Part shown: piece after piece, positions 13,336 to 50,727 of the stretch | How positions within the stretch are numbered: the stretch's first letter is position 1 | Layout of the letters: the number at the start of each line of letters is the position of its first letter | Assembly: GCA_020348445.1 (NCBI GenBank) | Contig: CP070751.1 | Coordinates: forward strand, 3,436,248 to 3,500,247 | Direction: 5' to 3' | Source of the DNA: Thermoplasmata archaeon | GTDB taxonomy: Archaea; Thermoplasmatota; Thermoplasmata; GCA-020350865 | DNA length: 64,000 nt | Program-made: the position numbers and the translations under genes | Notes under the pieces: model-generated | The model's database searches: none | What the model was told of the DNA's origin: nothing | The model's input: only the letters and a program-made list of their open reading frames with translations

Positions 13336-15468
13336 ATGAATGTCGAGGATCTTGAAATTGACGCGCAAATCATCCATATCCTTAAGAGCCAGGGTATTAC
13401 AGAGCTGTACCCTCCACAGGAGGAGGCAATTGAATATGCTCTGCAGGGCATGAACCTTGTATTGGCAGTGCCCACAGCCTCTGGAAAATCCCTTGTGGCT
13501 TATCTTGCAGTTTTGAAATGGGCCATGCAGGGACATAAGGTCCTTTATATTGTGCCGCTGCGGGCTCTTGCATCAGAAAAATACGAGGACCTAAAGGAAT
13601 TTGAGGTTCTTGGTGTTAAAATAGGCATTTCAATGGGAGACTACGATATTCCTGATCCAACATTAAGGAGATTTGATATTCTTGTTGCAACATCTGAAAA
13701 GGCTGATTCACTACTTAGGCATAAGGTGGATTGGTTAAATAAACTAAAATTAATAGTTGCTGACGAGGTTCATTTAATCAATGATTCTTCCAGGGGACCC
13801 ACTCTGGAGGTTATACTTGCCAGGTTCAAGCAGATAAATCCCGACGCCCAGATCATAGCCCTTTCAGCAACCATTAAGAATTCATCTGAGTTGGCAGATT
13901 GGCTTGAGGCTGTACATATAAAAAGTGATTGGAGACCTGTTCCCCTCAAAGAGGGGATTTTTATGAAAAACGAGATACAGTATACAGATAACTCCATTCA
14001 AGAAATAGACCCTGAAGGAGAGGATGTGCATTCCCTTATTCTCGATTGCGTGAAAGACAACTACCAGTGCTTGGTTTTCGTTAACAACCGCAAATCTACT
14101 GAGAGCTTGGCAGGTAAAGTTGGGAAGAAGATAGCCAAAATCTTAGATGAGAAGGAACTAAAAGCATTAGATGATGTCTCTCTTGAGATCCTTGAAAGAC
14201 AAAGTGAGCCCACCATCATCGGAAAAAGGCTCGCCTCTTACATCAAAAACGGTGCTGCTTTTCATAATGCTGGCCTCACAAATCAGCAGAGAAAAAGTGT
14301 GGAGTCGGCATTTAAAAACGGACACATAAGATGCATCGTGGCCACACCAACTTTGGCAGCGGGAATCAACCTGCCTGCAAGAAGGGTTATTATACGGGAT
14401 TACAAGCGGTATGAAGCCAACTACGGGAGCATACCCATACCGAATCTTGAAATAAAGCAGATGTCGGGAAGGGCTGGAAGGCCCCAGTACGATGACGTGG
14501 GCGAGGCTGTACTCATGGCCAAATCAGAAAAGGAGAAGGACTTCCTTTTGGAAAATTACCTGCTAAGCGATACAGAAGCAATAACCTCGAAACTTGGAAC
14601 AGAACCTGCCCTTAGAAATCATCTTCTGGCTCTAATTGCGTCAGAGATTGCGGAAACTGAAGAGGAGATCGACAGGTTCATCCAAGGTACTTTCTTCGCC
14701 CATCTTGAGGATATCTGGACGATTTCGGGAAGGATCCAGTCTACCCTGATATTCCTTGTGGAAAATGATCTGGTTCAGTACGATGATAGATATCGTGCAA
14801 CAAGATTTGGTAAAAAGACATCTTCACTTTATATCGACCCTCTTTCTGCAGTGCGGTTAAGAGCGGCAATAGAGAATGTTGCCCAGGGAAAAGTTCTGGA
14901 ATTGGCCATTCTTCACGCTGTTTCTGCAACACCTGATATGATAAAACTGTATCTGGGAAGAGGGGACTATCCCTGGGTCTCTGCTAAGGTAATGGAGCAT
15001 GAGAAGGATTTCCTCTTGCTTGTGCCAAAAGACGAAAATGAATTTGATTTTTTCTTAGCTGAGGTTAAGACAGCCTCACTTCTGGAGGCCTGGATTTCCG
15101 AGGTTCCCGAGGATGAGATCGTGAGGAAGTTCAACGTGGGCCCAGGGGACATCAGAAACAAGGTGGAAACTGCTGAATGGATAACCTACTCTATGCTTGA
15201 GCTTGCCAGATTGTTTAAATGCCCGCATCTGCAAACAATGGAGGAGCTCGTCACGAGATTAAGATACGGAGTAAAGAGGGACCTGATGCCCCTTATTCAA
15301 CTGGAGCAGGTCGGTAGGGTGAGGGCTAGGGCATTATACGGTGCGGGATTTCATAAATTGGAGGATCTGAGAGGAGTCCCAGTGGGGAGACTGGCCACGA
15401 TTCCCACTATTGGACCAAAGATCGCAGAGAATATAGTTGAGCAGCTCGAGAAAGGAAGACTGGTTTGA
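13336..15468 (+). CDS. hel308: Ski2-like SF2 DNA helicase Hel308
   Basis: PTASGKS, DEVH, ALSAT, ATPTLAAGINLPA, QMSGRAGRP, C-terminal HhH with RARALY. Confidence 0.95.
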   Translation: MNVEDLEIDAQIIHILKSQGITELYPPQEEAIEYALQGMNLVLAVPTASGKSLVAYLAVLKWAMQGHKVLYIVPLRALASEKYEDLKEFEVLGVKIGISMGDYDIPDPTLRRFDILVATSEKADSLLRHKVDWLNKLKLIVADEVHLINDSSRGPTLEVILARFKQINPDAQIIALSATIKNSSELADWLEAVHIKSDWRPVPLKEGIFMKNEIQYTDNSIQEIDPEGEDVHSLILDCVKDNYQCLVFVNNRKSTESLAGKVGKKIAKILDEKELKALDDVSLEILERQSEPTIIGKRLASYIKNGAAFHNAGLTNQQRKSVESAFKNGHIRCIVATPTLAAGINLPARRVIIRDYKRYEANYGSIPIPNLEIKQMSGRAGRPQYDDVGEAVLMAKSEKEKDFLLENYLLSDTEAITSKLGTEPALRNHLLALIASEIAETEEEIDRFIQGTFFAHLEDIWTISGRIQSTLIFLVENDLVQYDDRYRATRFGKKTSSLYIDPLSAVRLRAAIENVAQGKVLELAILHAVSATPDMIKLYLGRGDYPWVSAKVMEHEKDFLLLVPKDENEFDFFLAEVKTASLLEAWISEVPEDEIVRKFNVGPGDIRNKVETAEWITYSMLELARLFKCPHLQTMEELVTRLRYGVKRDLMPLIQLEQVGRVRARALYGAGFHKLEDLRGVPVGRLATIPTIGPKIAENIVEQLEKGRLV

Positions 15469-15480
15469 ATTAGTAGAATG

Positions 15481-15513
15481 AGTGCATCAGCTTTGATGTA
15501 CTTTTCTTTATTT
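15481..15513 (+). terminator. Hairpin plus T-rich tract after hel308
   Basis: AGTGCATCA-GCTT-TGATGTACT (one G-T pair) followed by TTTCTTTATTT. Confidence 0.55.
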
Positions 15514-15534
15514 GGTCGTAAAATTAGGGTGGGA

Positions 15535-15635
15535 GTCCTGAGGTTTAAGACTTGAACGTTTTACAGTATAACCGAGGGATAAAGTGTTCCTTATATCTCT
15601 TTTAAAAAGAAATTAAGAGGAACATGATAGAGAGG
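15535..15635 (+). ncRNA. Copy C (divergent) of an unassigned two-hairpin intergenic repeat element
   Basis: Same 9+28+9 first hairpin spacing, conserved GGYTTAAGA/TTTA/ATAACC motifs and second 9-bp stem as copies at 37280 and 50549, with compensatory changes. Confidence 0.6.
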
Positions 15636-15699
15636 TAGGTTGACACTTTTAAAAAACTGAAAAACTATAAATACACTTCAAAACCTAAATCCCAATCAT

Positions 15700-15933
15700 A
15701 TGTTCGAAGGAGTACATAGAGAAAAAACAGCTGTAATTCTCGTTTGTTTTGCCTTGTTGATACTTTTTTCTTATCTTGCTGGCCAAGCATATATCATATT
15801 CTTAAGACCCAGTTTCGGCCTCAGATACGCCAACCCATTCTTCATGATTTCTTTTTCAATAATATTCTTTTCACTGGTATATGTCTACCATAGTTGGATT
15901 ACCAGGATTGAGGGGGAAGAGAAGGACTCTTAA
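15700..15933 (+). CDS. Small two-TM membrane protein
   Basis: Two hydrophobic helices; CTATAAATA box ~28 nt upstream of ATG. Confidence 0.55.
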   Translation: MFEGVHREKTAVILVCFALLILFSYLAGQAYIIFLRPSFGLRYANPFFMISFSIIFFSLVYVYHSWITRIEGEEKDS

Positions 15934-19568: not shown

Positions 19569-19651
19569 CGTCCCCAATCCCAGTCAGGAGGAAAAATTAT
19601 TGGGTCAGATAGCCGCGTAAATTATGCGAGGAAGGATTGGGACTGGGGACG
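19569..19651. repeat. 17-bp imperfect inverted repeat enclosing 49 nt
   Basis: CGTCCCCAATCCCAGTC / GATTGGGACTGGGGACG, 15 of 17 Watson-Crick pairs. Confidence 0.8.
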
Positions 19652-20005
19652 TTTTATATATTATGTAGTTAGCCAGGGATATAATATGTCATACGGTTAT
19701 CTTCCATGATTATCAAACTCAACCAAAATTTGCCCATTTAAGGTCCCTATAGGTGGAAAACCATGTAAAAGGCAATTGAATGGAAAAATACATTATAATA
19801 TCTCATAAACAACCCAACCAAAGACTTTATACATATAAAATATATCTTTAAATAAATGGAGTGGAAAATTTATCTTGCACTTTTATTAATAATCATTTTT
19901 TTCATTGTGGTTAGACTTTATTTCATTCTTGTTATTGGATTCTAGTTTCTTAGTAATTTCACCCACCCCCCTCCCTCAATTATAAATAAACTCAAGACGA
20001 TAGGG

Positions 20006-29870: not shown

Positions 29871-32800
29871 TTATTGCGGTCCTATCGTGGTCAGCTCACC
29901 ACACATGGGACACCTGGCCACCATTGGCTGCTCAGGAATCGGTGCCGAAAAGGGATTCTGGCAATGTGGACATTTGTAGCTGAAAGCCACTGGTTGATAG
30001 GGAGGAACCTGCTCCGCTTCTCCAATTTCTGCTAAACCAACCTCCCCTTCAGGGGGCGCCTCCCCCTCCGTAACTATCCCTCCAAAAGCAACCTCACCTT
30101 CTGGGGCCAGGCCTTCTTCTGCGGCCTTACCTCTTTTCCTTTGTATCAATAATAAAACAACGATAACAACGATTACAACTGCCACGACAACCAATATAAT
30201 CCAGATCATACCATCTGAGGGTTCCTCGTCTGCCTTTTTCCATTTGCTTGAATCCAAGGGAAATGCATCCTCAGTATCTGGATGCCCGTCATCGTCGTCG
30301 TCTGTATCTGCATTGTTGCCGATACCATCTCCATCTGTGTCGAGCCATTCAGAAGCATCCAAGGGAAAGGCGTCTTCATCATCCAAGTAGCCATCATCGT
30401 CGTCGTCGGTATCTGCATTGTTGCCTTCTCCGTCGGAGTCGGTGTCAAGCCACTCAGTAGAATCTAAAGGAAACGCATCATCTACATCTGAATATCCATC
30501 ACCATCATCATCAGCGTCTGCGTTGTTACCAATTTCATCGGAATCAGTGTCTATCCATTCTGTGTTATCCAAGGGAAATGCATCGTTATCATCCAAATGT
30601 CCATCATTATCGTCGTCAACATCTTCCACATCCGGAGTGCCATCGTTATCTGTGTCTAATAGCAAATCAATGGCATCCAGGCTCGTATCAATGAAAGCTT
30701 CTTCATATGTTCCAGATATTAGATCGAAGTTAACATATATAATTGAGTTAGCATCTATCTTAAAGTCAGTTCTATCGTTTATGAATGAAAGAGGGATAAG
30801 GATTTTTAAGGTTGAATTACCAAAGCCAAAGGCTTCAAGGGATTGTGATTCTTGAGAGGTCGTATTTTCAATGCTCACCATGCCTAAAATACAATTAATT
30901 GTGAAGTCAGCATCATCATTATTTTCAGGATCATCGGTTTCGTCCATAAAGAGATATAAGCCATAGTAGTAAATATCGGATTCCACAATCTGGTCCTGGA
31001 TAGCCCCTACTACTTCCACTTCATATAGGAGGTAATCTCCAACTTTCCATATCGAGATGTTGGTCATATCGATATTTGGATATCCGCCAACCTGCACCTC
31101 ATTCTCGTCCATGACGTCCCCGATCTCATCGATCAGTAAGATCAATGACTCGTTGATGATGTATACCTCAAACCAAATGATAGCATCATTTCCAAAGGTA
31201 TCGTTTGCCTTGATATGTACCATAATCCGGCCATCGGACCACGAAGAGGTGTTGATAATGTACGGAGGTGCTAGTGTAGAATATTCTCCCCCATCTATCG
31301 AGTACATTACAGCGTCCGTATCAGGATCCGTGATATCGAGTTGGATTAATTTCCCGATAGAAATAATGGAATGGTTAAGATCGGGATCAATTGTGATGGT
31401 TGGAGGTGTGGAATCAATTGTGAAGAAGAACCAGGAAGAATTTGAATTGTTTGTTATGTCTATAGCATTGATCAATACTGTGTAATCTCCAGACTCCCAG
31501 CCTGATGTTGGGATTTCAAAAGGATCTGAGAATGGAATGTCTACGCCTTGGTTTACAGAATAATTAGCTTGGAACAGATTTGGATCAACTACTGAAAAGT
31601 CCAGGAGTGTTCCTCCTCCAATGAGTGTGTTGTTCTCGGGTGAATTCAGAACGATTGCAGGTGGTGTCGAATCCACTGTAAAGACAAACCATAAAGAAAC
31701 AGAGTTGCCCACCATGTCCAGCGCGTTAATTTGAACTATGTAATCATCATCTGTCCATCCAGTTGTAGTGATATTAAATGGATCGGAAAGTGAGATGTTG
31801 GCTCCCCCGTTAACAGAATAGTTGACTTGTAGTAGGTTTTCATCGACAATTAAAAAGTCTAAAACTGTTCCCTCATTTATAATAGCGTTGTCTTCGGGAG
31901 ACACCAAGATGATATCAGGTGGTATATCATCAATTGTAATATTATACCAGGAAGAATTTAAATTCCCTGCCAAATCCGTTGTATTGATTAGGATAATATA
32001 ATTCCCATCTGACCAGCCTGAGGTGGAAATATTGAATGGATCCAAAAGGGGAGTTTCGACCCCTCCATTTACAGAATAGTTAACATGCAAAAGATTTGAA
32101 TCTATGATAGAAAAGTTAAGAACTGTTCCTTCATCTATTATTGAGTTGTTTCCTGGGGACCCAAAGATAATAATGGGTGGTGTGGAATCAATTGTAAAGT
32201 AATACCAAGAGGAATTTGAGTTTCCAGCCATATCCACTGCATTTATTTGGACAGTATAATCTCCGTCCGCCAAATCAAATATCGAGATGTTAAAGGGATC
32301 TAATAAAGAAATGTTGACTCCTCCGTTTATGGAATAATTGACATGCACTAAATGTGGGTCGGAAATTGTGAAGTTTAGAATCGTGCTGTTATGTATGACT
32401 GAATTATTTTCCGGTGTATTTAGAATGATAATTGGTTTGCTAGAATCGACTGTGAAGTTAAACCAGGAGGAATTTGAGTTTCCTGCCTTATCCAAGGCAT
32501 TGATTTGGACTGTGTAATTTCCATCTGCCCATCCTGCTGTAGAAATATCAAAGGGATCTGAGAGGGAAATGATAGAACCCCCATTTATAGAATAGTTTGT
32601 ATTATTAAAATTGGATTCATCAATAGAAAAGTCGAGGATAGTTCCATTTGGAATAACTGAGTTGTTTTCAGGACTGTTTAATAGAACCTGAGGTTTTGTG
32701 GAATCTATAGTGAATGAAAACACTGAGGAATTAATATTGCCCGCTTCATCAATTGTATTTATTTGAATATTATAAACATCATCTGACCACCCTGTGGTGG

Positions 32801-35800
32801 GAATATCATAAGGATCTGTAAGTGGGTTGTTTACTCCTCCGTTTACAGAGTAATTGACATGTGATAGATGCAAGTCTATTATAGAGAAGTCAAGAACCGT
32901 TCCCTCTGTAATCACTGCGTTATTCTCAGGAGTATTCAATATGATTTGAGGCAATGTTGTATCAACTGTAAAGAAATACCAGGATGAATTTGAGTTTCCT
33001 ACCAAATCCACGGTATTGATTTGGATTGTATAATCTCCATCAAGCCAGCCAGAAGTGGATATATCAAAGGGATCTGAAAGAGGGATGTTAGGTTCTCCGT
33101 TTATGGAATAGTTGGCTTGCATTAAATGAGGATCGGTAATTGAAAGGTCTATAATTGCCCCACTGAGTATAATTGAGTTATTTTCTGGTGAATTAAGCTG
33201 GATTATGGGTTTTGTTGAATCAATGGTAAATAAAAAAGACAAGGAGTATCGATTTCCTGCTGCATCATCGGCAATTATTGTAATTATGTAACTTCCATCA
33301 GCCCAACCAGTAGTGGGAATATCATAAGGTGATGTAAGCGTTTGCTCTGATCCAAAATTAATAGTATATTTGGTTTGTGAGAGGTGAGGGTCGTCAATAG
33401 AGAAGTTCAATGATGTGCCACTGGGGATGATAGATTCATTCGCCGGAGAGTTCAAAATGATCGTAGGTGGTACCGAATCTATCGTAAAGTTATACCAGGA
33501 GAAAGCTGTGTTCCCAGCCGTATCTTGGGCATTAATTTGAACTTTGTAGACTCCATCTGTCCAACCGCTGGTGGTTATGTCATATGGATCAGAGAGAGGG
33601 GTATCGACTCCTGCATTTACAGAATAATTGACGTGATCTAGATTTGAATCAGAAACCGAGAAGTCCAATAGAGTATCTGCAGGGATAATGGAGTTGTTAA
33701 CAGGGGAATTGAGCTGGATTGTGGGTTTTGTGGAATCTATAGTAAAGAAGAACAAGGATGAATTTAGGTTTCCTACTATATCTTCTGCATTGATTAGTAT
33801 AGTGTATCCTCCGTCTGCCCATCCCGATGTCGATATATCATATGGATCAGTGAATAAAACATCAGGTTCACCATTTCTGGAGTAGGTGACCTGACTTAAA
33901 TTGGGATCTATAATAGAGAAGTCCAATATTGTGCCACTGGGAATGACTGAATTGTTAAACGGGCTGTTTAAAATAATTGTAGGTTTGGTTGAATCTATTA
34001 TAAAGGAGTACCAGGAAGAGTTTGAGTTTCCTGCCTGATCTTGCGCATTAATTTGAACTGTGTAGTCTCCATCAGACCAAACGCCGGTGGAAATGTCATA
34101 TGGATCTGAGAGTGGAGTATCAACTCCTGCATTTACTGAATAATTGACGTGATCTAGGTTTGGATCAAAAACCGAAAAGTCCAAGATAGTACCAGCAGGG
34201 ATAATAGAGTTATTAACAGGGGAATTAAGCTGAATTATTGGTTTTGTGGAATCGATTGTAAAGTTGAACCATGAAATGGTTGAATTCCCTGCAATATCTA
34301 ATGCATTGATCTGAACAGTATAGTCTTCATCTGCCCATCCCGATGTCGATATATCGAAAGGATCAGAGAGTGAAATATTCAATTCTCCATTTACGGAATA
34401 ATTGACGTGATCTAGGTTGGGTTCAATTATAGAGAAATCTAAAATAGTACCAGCTGGGATGATTGAGTTATTTGCTGGGGCGTTTAAGATGATTATTGGA
34501 GAAGCAGAATCTAATGTAAAGAAGTACCAGGAAGAGTTTGAGTTTCCTGCCTCATCTTGCGCATTAATTTGAACTGTATAGCCTCCATCAGCCCATCCAA
34601 CTGTTGATATATTATATGGAGCCGGGAGTGTGACATTCGAGCCGCCATTAACTGAATAATTGACGTGATCTAGGTTTATATCAATCACAGAAAAGTTCAA
34701 AAATGTTCCACCAGGGATTAGGGAATTATTTGCAGGTGAATTAAGAGATATGAAGGGTTTAATTGAATCGATTGTAAAGAAGAAAATCCGAAGGATAGAA
34801 TGATTGCTAAGATCTGTGGCATTTATCGTTACGTTATGTAATCCCTCAATCCAACCTGAGGTTGAAATATCAAATGGTTCTGGGAAAGTCTGTTCTATTC
34901 CGCCATCTATGGAATAATTTACAATATCGAGATCCTCATCATAAACGAGGAAATCAAGGATTACACCTGGTTGGATTACAGAATTGTTTAAAGGATAAAT
35001 CAATTGAATTCTGGGACCTATTCCTTCAATTGGTCCCATTAATGGATAGTAATCATATGATTTTCCTGTTACATTGTCGATATCTACATACCAATCATCC
35101 ACTATCCCATCGCTGCCTTCTATATCCTGATTATGGCCTGTATAGTTATCATATGCTCCTTCAATGGGCTCGTCAAAATCGCTCCAATAGTTACCACCGA
35201 TAGGATATGTCATGTTCCAAGTGTTATTACCATCCTCGTCATAAGCTTGGTACGTGTTGAACCAGAGGATATTATGGTAGATGAGGTTGTCACCAGATGT
35301 CAAGTAAATTCCATAATTGAAATTCATGGAGATGTTGTTCTTTGTGATGTTGTTGTCATGGGATAAGGTTTGTATATATATCCCATCGTTGTTGGAAAAT
35401 ATCCTGTTTGAAGTTATATTGTTGTTATCGCATAAAGATAAACGGATTCCCCACATACTGCCGGAAACGGTGTTGTTCTCGATGTTGTTCCCTGAAGAAG
35501 AATAAAGGAATATACCTCGCCAGTAAAAATTATGACTGAATATGCTGTTGTTAGATATATCGTTTTTATCTGATTCGGAAAGCCATATACCATAATTGGT
35601 GACATTAGAAATTTCACAGTTTTGAATTTCATTTCCTGTGGATTGCTCGATGTAAATTCCGTTCGTGGCGTTGGTGATATTGCAGAATTTAATAGTGGCA
35701 AGGCCTGTTGAGTTTATTTGGATTCCGGTCCAAGTGAACGAGTCATTTGAATTTGTGAACTTAATCATGTTAGGTGGATTCCCCACGGCCTTGAGGGTTC

Positions 35801-36062
35801 CGTTGCCTATGTAAAGTCCATAACTACCGTTGAAAATAACCTCCACACCTGCCTCAATGGTCAGGGTTGCGTTGTTCTCCACATATACATCGCCCTGAAT
35901 GTAATATGGACTGTTTCCTATATCCCATATGTCATTGGATGTTATCTGGCCCCCAGGAATCTCTATTCCCGAGACTGTATTATTTGGTACTATGAGAAGC
36001 CCACTCAAACACCCAATTACCAATATCCAAATGGTTAAAACCGACGAAATAGCCTTTTTCAT
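29871..36062 (-). CDS. Giant (2063 aa) cell-surface protein: beta-helix, 15 Ig-like repeats, TSP3 repeats, TM, C-terminal zinc ribbon
   Basis: Signal peptide; NosD-like region; 86-aa repeats; DTDxDG repeats; TM; CPHC..CPMC. Confidence 0.92.
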   Translation of the reverse strand: MKKAISSVLTIWILVIGCLSGLLIVPNNTVSGIEIPGGQITSNDIWDIGNSPYYIQGDVYVENNATLTIEAGVEVIFNGSYGLYIGNGTLKAVGNPPNMIKFTNSNDSFTWTGIQINSTGLATIKFCNITNATNGIYIEQSTGNEIQNCEISNVTNYGIWLSESDKNDISNNSIFSHNFYWRGIFLYSSSGNNIENNTVSGSMWGIRLSLCDNNNITSNRIFSNNDGIYIQTLSHDNNITKNNISMNFNYGIYLTSGDNLIYHNILWFNTYQAYDEDGNNTWNMTYPIGGNYWSDFDEPIEGAYDNYTGHNQDIEGSDGIVDDWYVDIDNVTGKSYDYYPLMGPIEGIGPRIQLIYPLNNSVIQPGVILDFLVYDEDLDIVNYSIDGGIEQTFPEPFDISTSGWIEGLHNVTINATDLSNHSILRIFFFTIDSIKPFISLNSPANNSLIPGGTFLNFSVIDINLDHVNYSVNGGSNVTLPAPYNISTVGWADGGYTVQINAQDEAGNSNSSWYFFTLDSASPIIILNAPANNSIIPAGTILDFSIIEPNLDHVNYSVNGELNISLSDPFDISTSGWADEDYTVQINALDIAGNSTISWFNFTIDSTKPIIQLNSPVNNSIIPAGTILDFSVFDPNLDHVNYSVNAGVDTPLSDPYDISTGVWSDGDYTVQINAQDQAGNSNSSWYSFIIDSTKPTIILNSPFNNSVIPSGTILDFSIIDPNLSQVTYSRNGEPDVLFTDPYDISTSGWADGGYTILINAEDIVGNLNSSLFFFTIDSTKPTIQLNSPVNNSIIPADTLLDFSVSDSNLDHVNYSVNAGVDTPLSDPYDITTSGWTDGVYKVQINAQDTAGNTAFSWYNFTIDSVPPTIILNSPANESIIPSGTSLNFSIDDPHLSQTKYTINFGSEQTLTSPYDIPTTGWADGSYIITIIADDAAGNRYSLSFLFTIDSTKPIIQLNSPENNSIILSGAIIDLSITDPHLMQANYSINGEPNIPLSDPFDISTSGWLDGDYTIQINTVDLVGNSNSSWYFFTVDTTLPQIILNTPENNAVITEGTVLDFSIIDLHLSHVNYSVNGGVNNPLTDPYDIPTTGWSDDVYNIQINTIDEAGNINSSVFSFTIDSTKPQVLLNSPENNSVIPNGTILDFSIDESNFNNTNYSINGGSIISLSDPFDISTAGWADGNYTVQINALDKAGNSNSSWFNFTVDSSKPIIILNTPENNSVIHNSTILNFTISDPHLVHVNYSINGGVNISLLDPFNISIFDLADGDYTVQINAVDMAGNSNSSWYYFTIDSTPPIIIFGSPGNNSIIDEGTVLNFSIIDSNLLHVNYSVNGGVETPLLDPFNISTSGWSDGNYIILINTTDLAGNLNSSWYNITIDDIPPDIILVSPEDNAIINEGTVLDFLIVDENLLQVNYSVNGGANISLSDPFNITTTGWTDDDYIVQINALDMVGNSVSLWFVFTVDSTPPAIVLNSPENNTLIGGGTLLDFSVVDPNLFQANYSVNQGVDIPFSDPFEIPTSGWESGDYTVLINAIDITNNSNSSWFFFTIDSTPPTITIDPDLNHSIISIGKLIQLDITDPDTDAVMYSIDGGEYSTLAPPYIINTSSWSDGRIMVHIKANDTFGNDAIIWFEVYIINESLILLIDEIGDVMDENEVQVGGYPNIDMTNISIWKVGDYLLYEVEVVGAIQDQIVESDIYYYGLYLFMDETDDPENNDDADFTINCILGMVSIENTTSQESQSLEAFGFGNSTLKILIPLSFINDRTDFKIDANSIIYVNFDLISGTYEEAFIDTSLDAIDLLLDTDNDGTPDVEDVDDDNDGHLDDNDAFPLDNTEWIDTDSDEIGNNADADDDGDGYSDVDDAFPLDSTEWLDTDSDGEGNNADTDDDDDGYLDDEDAFPLDASEWLDTDGDGIGNNADTDDDDDGHPDTEDAFPLDSSKWKKADEEPSDGMIWIILVVVAVVIVVIVVLLLIQRKRGKAAEEGLAPEGEVAFGGIVTEGEAPPEGEVGLAEIGEAEQVPPYQPVAFSYKCPHCQNPFSAPIPEQPMVARCPMCGELTTIGPQ
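31164..35018 (-). repeat. Intragenic tandem array of 15 degenerate ~258-bp (86-aa) repeats
   Basis: Unit consensus TIDSTKPxIxLNSPxNNS..GTxLDFS..VNYSVNG..DPxDISTxGWxDGxYxVQINAxDxAGNSNSSW counted 15 times in the translation. Confidence 0.9.
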
Positions 36063-37193: not shown

Positions 37194-37279
37194 TGGCCCA
37201 CATAACCAACTTTATGGATTTAAAGAATTCGAACTTATTTTCTTGTATTCTTTTCCAATAACGGTGTTATTGGGTGTGA

Positions 37280-37378
37280 GCCCTTAGGCTTAAGATAACA
37301 GCTCTTTATTGCATAACCTAAGGGCTAAGTGGACTATGAAAAAATCATGTAGGAAATGGAATAGGCCACGAAGGAGGG
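37280..37378 (+). ncRNA. Copy A of an unassigned two-hairpin intergenic repeat element
   Basis: GCCCTTAGG-N28-CCTAAGGGC then GTGGACTAT-N23-ATAGGCCAC; 88/99 identical, ungapped, to 50549-50647. Confidence 0.7.
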
Positions 37379-37475
37379 CGTCCTTGGGGGAGGGAAAAGG
37401 TAATATCAAAGATAAAAACTGAAGAATGTCGTTTCTTTCAAAAACCTTCTTAAGGCTCATATCCATTCTGAATCC

Positions 37476-50407: not shown

Positions 50408-50548
50408 GGACTTTTTCCTCGCAACGAGTATTGTATGGGTTGATATTTACCTTTTTTGTTTGATTTATATGAACAAATCCTTTTCATAGTTTTTTTAGTT
50501 CCTGGGTGGGTGGAGGGAGGTAGGTGGTGGGTAGATCTTTATGCGGGG

Positions 50549-50647
50549 GCCCTTAGGCTTAAGATATCAACTCTTTATCGCATAACCTAAGGGCAAAGTG
50601 GCCTATGAATTAATCATATAGGATATGGAATAGACCACGATGGAGGG
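50549..50647 (+). ncRNA. Copy B of an unassigned two-hairpin intergenic repeat element
   Basis: GCCCTTAGG-N28-CCTAAGGGC then GTGGCCTAT-N23-ATAGACCAC; 88/99 identical to 37280-37378. Confidence 0.7.
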
Positions 50648-50727
50648 GGGATGGTGGGAGGGATGAAGATGATAGATAAAAAACGATATCAAAAATATAT
50701 TATCACCCAAACCCAATTCCTTATGTC

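Follow-up and report, generated by a model that had tools for sequence, protein, structure and literature searches.

A diverged two-hairpin repeat downstream of hel308 in a Thermoplasmata archaeon belongs to a genus-restricted family that folds on one strand and may move as DNA

The short element downstream of the hel308-like helicase gene, which we call copy C, is a true but diverged member of a two-hairpin repeat family, since a covariance model built without it (R1) still scores it at 72.8 bits. It was studied in a window of 64,000 nucleotides of contig CP070751.1, the whole stretch of DNA analysed here, which contains two other copies, A and B, and was compared with four sister genomes of the same genus (G001 to G004). 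We interpret copy C as an old member, of the subfamily called type II below, of a genus-specific and gene-less module of ~95-115 nt. Of its five parts, the two outer ones are G-rich half-boxes, and between them lie, in order, hairpin 1 (a stem of 9 bp that co-varies, an extrahelical base, and TTAAGA...ATAAC, which are invariant and unpaired), the linker AAAG, and hairpin 2 (co-varying stem GUG...CAC). We give about even credence to the explanation that this module would be a non-autonomous mobile hairpin element whose folded single strand, as DNA, would be recognised by the enzyme that copies or moves it.

Copy C lies in the 231-nt spacer between the hel308-like gene, whose stop codon is at 15466-15468, and a gene for a small membrane protein. 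The features of the window needed below are the following.

13336-15468, + strand: hel308-like helicase gene, 710 aa, from the ORF list; upstream neighbour of copy C.
15501-15514, + strand: T-rich tract CTTTTCTTTATTTG, read directly from the sequence.
15527-15535, + strand: 5' G-rich half-box GGGTGGGAG, whose final G is the first base of hairpin 1.
15535-15580, + strand: hairpin 1 of copy C, with arms 15535-15543 GTCCTGAGG and 15572-15580 CCGAGGGAT and a 28-nt loop.
15584-15625, + strand: hairpin 2 of copy C, type II, with arms 15584-15592 GTGTTCCTT and 15617-15625 GAGGAACAT and a 24-nt loop.
15626-15640, + strand: degenerate 3' G-rich half-box GATAGAGAGGTAGGT, from the alignment with the nearest copies (subfamily consensus GGAGGAGGGG).
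15660-15673, + strand: BRE/TATA-like promoter AAAAACTATAAATA of the downstream gene, conserved in sister genomes.
15700-15933, + strand: ORF of the small membrane-protein gene, 77 aa, start codon at 15700; the true downstream neighbour of copy C.
37272-37384, + strand: copy A, type I, including the G-box halves; 123.6 bits with model R1.
50541-50653, + strand: copy B, type I, including the G-box halves; 127.2 bits with model R1.

The genes on both sides of copy C are conserved: orthologues of hel308 with 80-85% identity are present in 4/4 sister genomes, and in each of them the orthologue of the membrane-protein gene lies directly 3' of hel308. The T-rich tract is likely the oligo-T terminator of hel308, and tracts of the same kind are found in G003 (CTTTTCTTTAATT) and G004 (CTCTTTTCTC). 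Similarly, the BRE/TATA-like sequence is the putative promoter of the downstream gene, with counterparts in G003 (AAAAACTATAAATA), G004 (AAAAACTATTAATA) and G001 (GAAAAATATTAATA) located 25-35 nt upstream of the start codon. The sequence-only reading had placed the element past the hel308 terminator and ahead of the TATA box of the next gene, and the positions of these two signals agree with that placement. Copy C was unchanged in a second sample (contigs of two DNA runs), with one SNP at 15659, outside the element, and no joints. The 9-mer GGGTGGGAG is found immediately 5' of hairpin 1 in most type-I copies too.

The 9+28+9 geometry of hairpin 1 is common to copy A (37280-37325), copy B (50549-50594) and copy C (15535-15580), with an identity of 43/46 between A and B and of 31/46 between B and C. 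Copy C keeps the motifs GGTTTAAGA, TTTA and ATAACC, its loop contains the family-invariant TTAAGA and ATAAC, and the pattern TTAAGA-N-ATAACC was observed three times in the window versus 0.39 expected. The nine positions of its hairpin-1 stem are, in order, G.U, U-A, C-G, C-G, U.G, G.A, A.G, G-C and G-C, the second being C-G in A and B. In hairpin 2, 9/9 positions are paired, with G.U at positions 1 and 9 and Watson-Crick pairs at the remainder, and both arms are changed at positions 4, 5, 7 and 8 relative to the A/B arms GTGGNCTAT/ATAGNCCAC. All four wobbles of copy C become A.C on the minus strand. Reading the sequence again, pair by pair, we recovered what had been described there from the letters: the coordinates, the geometry, the identity to B and the motifs, the exchange of C-G for U-A, the two G.U pairs and the tandem G.A/A.G of hairpin 1, the complete pairing of a hairpin 2 with four swapped pairs, and the wobbles that work on the + strand only. 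The other marks of the family are also present, namely N-TTAAGA...ATAAC, the AAAG linker and the GUG...CAC foot of hairpin 2, where CAC is replaced by CAT to give a G.U pair.

Membership of copy C was addressed with model R1, which was built from 11 type-I copies and from which C and its closest relatives had been left out. In the window this model gave 124-127 bits for A and B and 72.8 bits for C, the latter over the full model length and with an E-value of 4.6e-20, and it matched nothing in the window besides these three; copy C is thus scored by a model of the other copies far above noise. With A, B and C as seeds, nhmmer found 27 matches genome-wide, and the genome holds ~16 two-hairpin copies and ~30 further hairpin-1 matches. 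The two-hairpin copies fall into two types according to hairpin 2. Type I (GTGGNCTAT...ATAGNCCAC) includes A, B and about nine more copies in this genome and is also present in G001 and G003, and type II (GTGYTCCNN...NRGGARCAC) includes C and three more copies in this genome and is also present in G002 and G004. The two types are homologous, as five features are common to them: hairpin 1 and the G-rich half-box 5' of it, the linker AAAG, the motif GRAATKRA in the loop near the 3' arm of hairpin 2, and the continuation CACG-GGNGG(G).

The nearest relative of copy C, at genome position 2291274, has 75% identity to it and shows how the stems are spared: 4/36 stem bases differ (a C-G pair changed on both sides to U-A, and two G-C pairs turned into G.U) and 0 pairs are broken on the + strand, while by eye at least a third of the bases has changed in the variable loop centres and in the G-rich flank on the 3' side. 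Other species share the older subfamily of which copy C is a member, and on these comparisons its hairpin-2 swaps relative to A and B were not acquired at this locus but are subfamily history that arose in the source lineage. The compensatory changes may reflect selection for copying or moving rather than for a host function.

The pairing of the stems is conserved across the whole family. In a set of 62 aligned matches from five genomes, with an alignment fitted to the model, which favours structure, 92.1% of the stem cells were in standard pairs, versus 71.9% with shuffled partners and 33-42% with slid partners, and 246 stem cells showed double changes versus 65 expected, a count reached by 0/500 shuffles. 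Counting pairs arm by arm, which is independent of the alignment, gave for the 42 distinct arm pairs of hairpin 1 a total of 306 Watson-Crick, 40 G.A, 22 G.U and 1 A.C pairs, and for the distinct arm pairs of hairpin 2 in the two-hairpin class 172 Watson-Crick, 13 G.A, 12 G.U and 2 A.C pairs. Both hairpins together therefore present 34 G.U versus 3 A.C on the + strand, and because each G.U of the + strand corresponds to a mismatched A.C in the minus strand, it is the + strand that must fold. At position 4 of hairpin 2, the stepwise path from C-G through U.G to U-A can be followed in different copies (GTGCTCC/GGAGCAC, GTGTTCC/GGAGCAC and GTGTTCC/GGAACAC). The arms of hairpin 1 vary freely (GCCCTTAGG, GTCCTGAGG, GTGTTCGAG, ATGTTCAAG, GTTGCGAAG and CTCTTCGTG are all found), and what is fixed in it are an extrahelical base and two unpaired motifs, TTAAGA and ATAAC. 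Conservation concerns how the + strand folds, together with a few bases that stay unpaired, and this fits a protein reading a folded single strand.

Comparison with the sister genomes showed that the element is mobile as DNA. The spacers between hel308 and the membrane-protein gene in G001 to G004 keep the T-rich tract and the BRE/TATA and have no hairpins and no G-rich box, and in G003 the two signals are only ~7 nt apart; because these four spacers are empty, it was in this lineage alone that copy C with its G-rich half-boxes was inserted between T-tract and promoter. The earlier inference that selection acts on a single-stranded structure of defined polarity, and not on a double-stranded protein-binding site, is upheld by the covariation and by the 34 G.U versus 3 A.C, while a functional RNA at the locus of copy C, such as the ribozyme or riboswitch at which the checks suggested with that inference were aimed, becomes unlikely in view of this lineage-specific insertion between T-tract and promoter. 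At the site of A, G004 has a seamless hairpin-less box, GGGTGGGAG joined directly to GAGGGGG, G002 a G-rich stretch and G003 nothing; at the site of B, G004 has a solo G-box, and G001, G002 and G003 have neither hairpins nor a canonical G-box. The elements at genome positions 395367 and 70958 are absent from all sister genomes compared, and that at 2191769 is absent from G001, the sole sister genome compared there. About a dozen hairpin-less solo boxes (GGGTGGGAGGAGGGGGT...) are present in this genome. Taken site by site, the alignments indicate that the hairpin pair comes and goes within G-boxes and that the G-boxes come and go too.

The copy at genome position 2621034 has its orthologous site filled in G003, with stems and motifs kept and with the centre of the hairpin-1 loop almost wholly diverged, a retention that hints at selection on the resident copy, which a purely selfish element would not need. 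At the six loci where filled and empty sites were compared, a seamless junction was obtained only for the hairpin pair within the G-box (A versus G004), and the larger unit gave fuzzy or replaced sequence. Neither clean element ends nor target-site duplications were definable across the loci compared; possible 5-bp duplications are seen at two loci (TAAAA at C and ATATT at 395367), in an inconsistent pattern, and the module has no terminal inverted repeats.

The G-boxes and partial units deserve a description of their own. Solo G-boxes GGGTGGGAGGAGGGGGT, for instance at G000:C1:235458, 834769, 3936467, 4769968(+), 5018527, 2152766 and 674983(-) of this genome, are sharply abutted on the 5' side by A/T-rich DNA and followed by GGAGG-rich purine tracts, and those at 235458 and 2844961 run on into a common ...TTAAnTTGnnATCCTCAAATA module; they may represent promoter-side elements prone to form G-quadruplexes. 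At G000:C1:2969887-2970099 (-) (locus L011), hairpin 2 of a two-hairpin copy is split by a ~130-nt insertion, downstream of which the 3' arm and GATGGAGGGGG recur. At G000:C1:1385400-1385590 (-) (locus L004), the 3' arm of hairpin 2 and the G-rich box (ATAGGCCACGATGGAGGGG) are present three further times downstream, without hairpin 1, and form a partial-unit array like those at tRNA ends.

The family has a narrow distribution. Searching with R1 detected it in 4/4 genomes of the same genus and in none of the 56 genomes searched from the rest of the class. When one genome per GTDB species was scanned with the exact pattern, the family was found in two of the sister genomes, recorded as Methanomassiliicoccales archaeon bin396 (CP070739) and as an uncultured Thermoplasmata MAG, and outside the genus in one 5-kb contig binned as Candidatus Aminicenantes, the other matches being chance singles. 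The copy on the Aminicenantes-binned contig (WVZK01000024.1, 4601-4715, -) is a genuine two-hairpin copy scoring 65.7 bits, and the contig is probably a mis-binned one of this archaeal genus. The pattern scan had 0 matches in viral contigs, and in metagenomes a single locus was found, to which the model gave no confirmation. On these searches, the family is confined to one uncultured genus, known from Methanomassiliicoccales/Thermoplasmata MAGs, and no description of it was found in the literature searched.

Searching the whole window with Rfam 15 returned one tRNA and nothing else at gathering score; the best sub-threshold match, near copy A, was RsmY with 16.3 bits (E 0.07) for a gathering score of 57. 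A ribozyme or riboswitch was considered and rejected, there being no Rfam match and, on inspection, no hammerhead-like core. The intron-containing tRNA at 2646-2749 was reported by Rfam and missed by ARAGORN, and an exact 65-bp direct repeat (2488-2665) brackets its start. Other repeats were noticed in the window. At 19570-19652 lies a long imperfect palindrome (GCGTCCCCAATCCCAGTC ... GGATTGGGACTGGGGACG), for which the contig depth is ~3 to 6 times higher in both DNA runs, with many contigs breaking and leaving loose ends, and which seems to represent a further family of multi-copy hairpin repeats in this genome. At 31400-34900 on the minus strand, ~13 tandem repeats of 258 nt (86 codons) with 60-80% identity are found inside a 2063-aa ORF (29871-36062, minus strand), a large repetitive gene resembling those of surface proteins.

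Hairpin 1 also occurs at the 3' ends of tRNA genes, where it is the core of attached modules whose equivalent of hairpin 2 is formed by an inverted copy together with the real tRNA end. In the full form of these tRNA-linked modules, the strand that folds is antisense to the tRNA, and its wobbles are G.U only and never A.C. Behind tRNA-Pro(CGG) and tRNA-Leu(GAG) (G000:C1:3233486-3233660 and 3218823-3218994) there is a hairpin-1-only unit in the sense of the tRNA, followed at tRNA-Pro(CGG) by a direct copy of the tRNA 3' end. The core hairpin can then sit either way round, because these two units are sense and the full modules elsewhere antisense.

The first alternative to a mobile single-stranded DNA is a role in RNA, which we regard as possible, though rather unlikely. 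According to it, the hairpins, co-transcribed or carrying a promoter that was not recognised, would bind a protein and stabilise, terminate, insulate or regulate the neighbouring transcripts, while still being a mobile repeat. There are precedents, as REP, BOX and Correia elements act in transcripts once located there. The one-sided G.U and G.A tolerance is a classic RNA signature, and calculated with RNA parameters the + strand of copy C folds into exactly both hairpins with -25.1 kcal/mol, versus -17.6 kcal/mol for the minus strand. With DNA parameters the whole element reaches -8.1 kcal/mol (z -0.7), no better than shuffles, and hairpin 1 is marginal; this weak fold, and the G.U and tandem G.A pairs that are more typical of RNA helices, count against the single-stranded DNA reading. 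For A and B, which are perfect palindromes, single-copy thermodynamic z-scores did not separate the strands. The orthologous copy shared with G003, which keeps stems and motifs around a diverged loop centre, also speaks for a role in RNA.

The genomic context of the 31 two-hairpin copies bears on this role in both directions. The downstream gene is co-oriented with the module in 24/31 copies, and at two loci the insertion follows a TATA-like box that is conserved in the sister species, a position that would make the module part of a 5' UTR. The flanking genes (upstream, downstream) are oriented (-,+) in 16 cases, (+,+) in 8, (-,-) in 5 and (+,-) in 2, so that of the copies within co-directional gene pairs, 8 are sense and 5 are antisense to either neighbour, and the remaining 2 copies are flanked by convergent genes. 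The module thus prefers promoter-bearing spacers, with no strict orientation to transcription. No TATA-like box was found at a fixed distance upstream of the copies, and the family has no promoter of its own by this measure. Copy C itself, past a conserved T-tract and ahead of a conserved BRE/TATA, would be transcribed by read-through only; the full tRNA-linked modules fold antisense to the tRNA; and the family has no Rfam match, RsmY at ~16 bits being the best. We also looked at orientation along the chromosome: the hairpin-1 loci cluster (25/30 for the best two-arc split, permutation p ~0.014), the two-hairpin class alone does not significantly (p 0.32), no replichore pattern emerged from cumulative GC skew or long-ORF orientation, and this clustering was not counted as evidence.

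We find it improbable that the hairpins are a by-product of templated inverted duplication of local sequence, by which the compensatory changes would have no selective meaning. The tRNA-linked relatives suggest the idea, since both of their hairpin-2 arms copy the host tRNA 3' end and arms can thus be re-made to order, and the type-II arm GTGCTCC resembles the tRNA-derived GTGCCCC. However, none of the 38 tRNAs predicted by ARAGORN has a 3' end matching the hairpin-2 arms of the two-hairpin class, and the hairpin-1 arms co-vary yet copy nothing nearby. Furthermore, such a process would yield perfect complements and leave unexplained the 34 G.U versus 3 A.C, the recurrent tandem G.A and the U.G intermediates, and types I and II have linker, GRAATKRA loop motif and flanks in common, which points to homology and not to independent captures. 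Finally, a double-stranded site for a dimeric regulator upstream of promoters, which the location of most copies in promoter-bearing intergenic regions and the capacity of inverted-repeat arms to bind dimers might evoke, is highly improbable and already close to refuted: a symmetric site is ruled out because the arms are free while complementarity, unpaired motifs and one-sided wobbles are kept, the conserved TTAAGA and ATAAC are asymmetric, the strand-specific mismatches would be invisible to double-stranded recognition, and the placement relative to the TATA box varies.

Returning to the mobile single-stranded DNA element, the module is mobile as DNA and lands mostly in promoter-bearing intergenic DNA, often within G-rich boxes. 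Its most likely reader would be an enzyme that copies or moves it as folded single-stranded DNA, comparable to the HUH/Y1 enzymes acting on REP and on IS200/IS605 ends; integrases acting on folded attC sites offer an alternative model. The compensatory changes and the one-sided wobbles would result from the propagation of only those source copies still folding on the + strand. Candidate enzymes exist, as Y1 (HUH) transposase genes are present in 5/5 genomes. None of these genes adjoins a hairpin-1 match, the flanks of five Y1 loci in this genome are without the motif, and the IS200-like element of this genome, the one IS compared, has end hairpins (AATGAATAC-CAGAGCC... and ...TGCACCCC...) unlike hairpin 1 or hairpin 2. 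All-against-all comparison of the ORFs flanking 66 loci returned syntenic orthologues only, and no protein family recurs beside the copies.

Several known systems resemble the module. REP, BIME and REPIN sequences are bacterial extragenic palindromes mobilised by RAYT (Y1 HUH) transposases, and like the module they are short, gene-less, multi-copy, intergenic and imperfect hairpins with strand-specific mismatches, variable between relatives; recognition as a folded single strand and the ability to act in RNA once transcribed may be further points in common. In contrast to them, no RAYT-like gene is flanked by module repeats in the five genomes, the module lacks a conserved 5' tetranucleotide of the GTAG kind, it has a large loop with invariant unpaired motifs and two dissimilar hairpins instead of an inverted REP pair, its host is archaeal, and a tRNA-end-linked sister class exists. 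BOX, RUP and Correia elements are modular, structured bacterial repeats near promoters that alter or join transcripts and whose mobilisation is partly unknown. They share with the module a modular, highly structured character and the proximity to promoters, but the module has no terminal inverted repeats or clear target duplications, its sequences are unrelated and its host is an archaeon.

Integron attC sites, which have reportedly been seen in Archaea as well, are similar in that structure is conserved above sequence, one strand is folded and extrahelical bases are present, and the ATAAC of the module resembles the inverse core RYYYAAC. However, the partner of ATAAC is not GTTRRRY, pairing occurs only by UAA/UUA with TTAAGA, and there are no gene cassettes between two-hairpin copies, which are single and dispersed in ordinary intergenic DNA instead of arrayed. 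The IS200/IS605 elements and their gene-less derivatives, the PATEs (PMC3119063, PMC10055086), provide a comparable arrangement, in which either end has a sub-terminal hairpin, a single strand is active, non-autonomous copies exist and insertion takes place beside a short specific sequence without obvious target duplication. Here the differences are that the left and right hairpins of the module are unlike each other, that the ends of the resident IS200-like element (one IS compared) are unrelated, and that the module has no scaffold of omega-RNA size. As judged from these comparisons, the module works like REP/REPIN, PATE, attC and MITE-like repeats, but it flanks no RAYT gene, its hairpins are unlike the ends of the resident IS, it bounds no cassettes, and it shows no terminal inverted repeats and no regular target duplication. 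We can only tentatively propose that hairpin 1 would be the folded-strand recognition site of an undescribed archaeal system of single-strand recombination or transposition, installing modules at promoter-proximal G-rich boxes and at tRNA 3' ends by means of an enzyme not linked to the repeats, or else that the module would be a new protein-binding RNA domain spread by that system.

For annotation, the compensatory changes of copy C are to be read as the history of a repeat subfamily and not as signs that this locus encodes a riboswitch or ribozyme. More generally, small hairpin repeats that fold on one strand mark transactions of single-stranded DNA or control at the RNA level, both of which are poorly charted in Archaea. 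The evidence is clean in the present case, with heavy covariation, a 34:3 wobble asymmetry, and sites that are filled, empty and orthologously retained, and one conserved hairpin joins two types of targets, the ends of tRNAs and the G-rich boxes on the promoter side. Finding the partner of the module, whether an enzyme or an RNA-binding protein, would define a new archaeal mobile-element or RNA-protein system.
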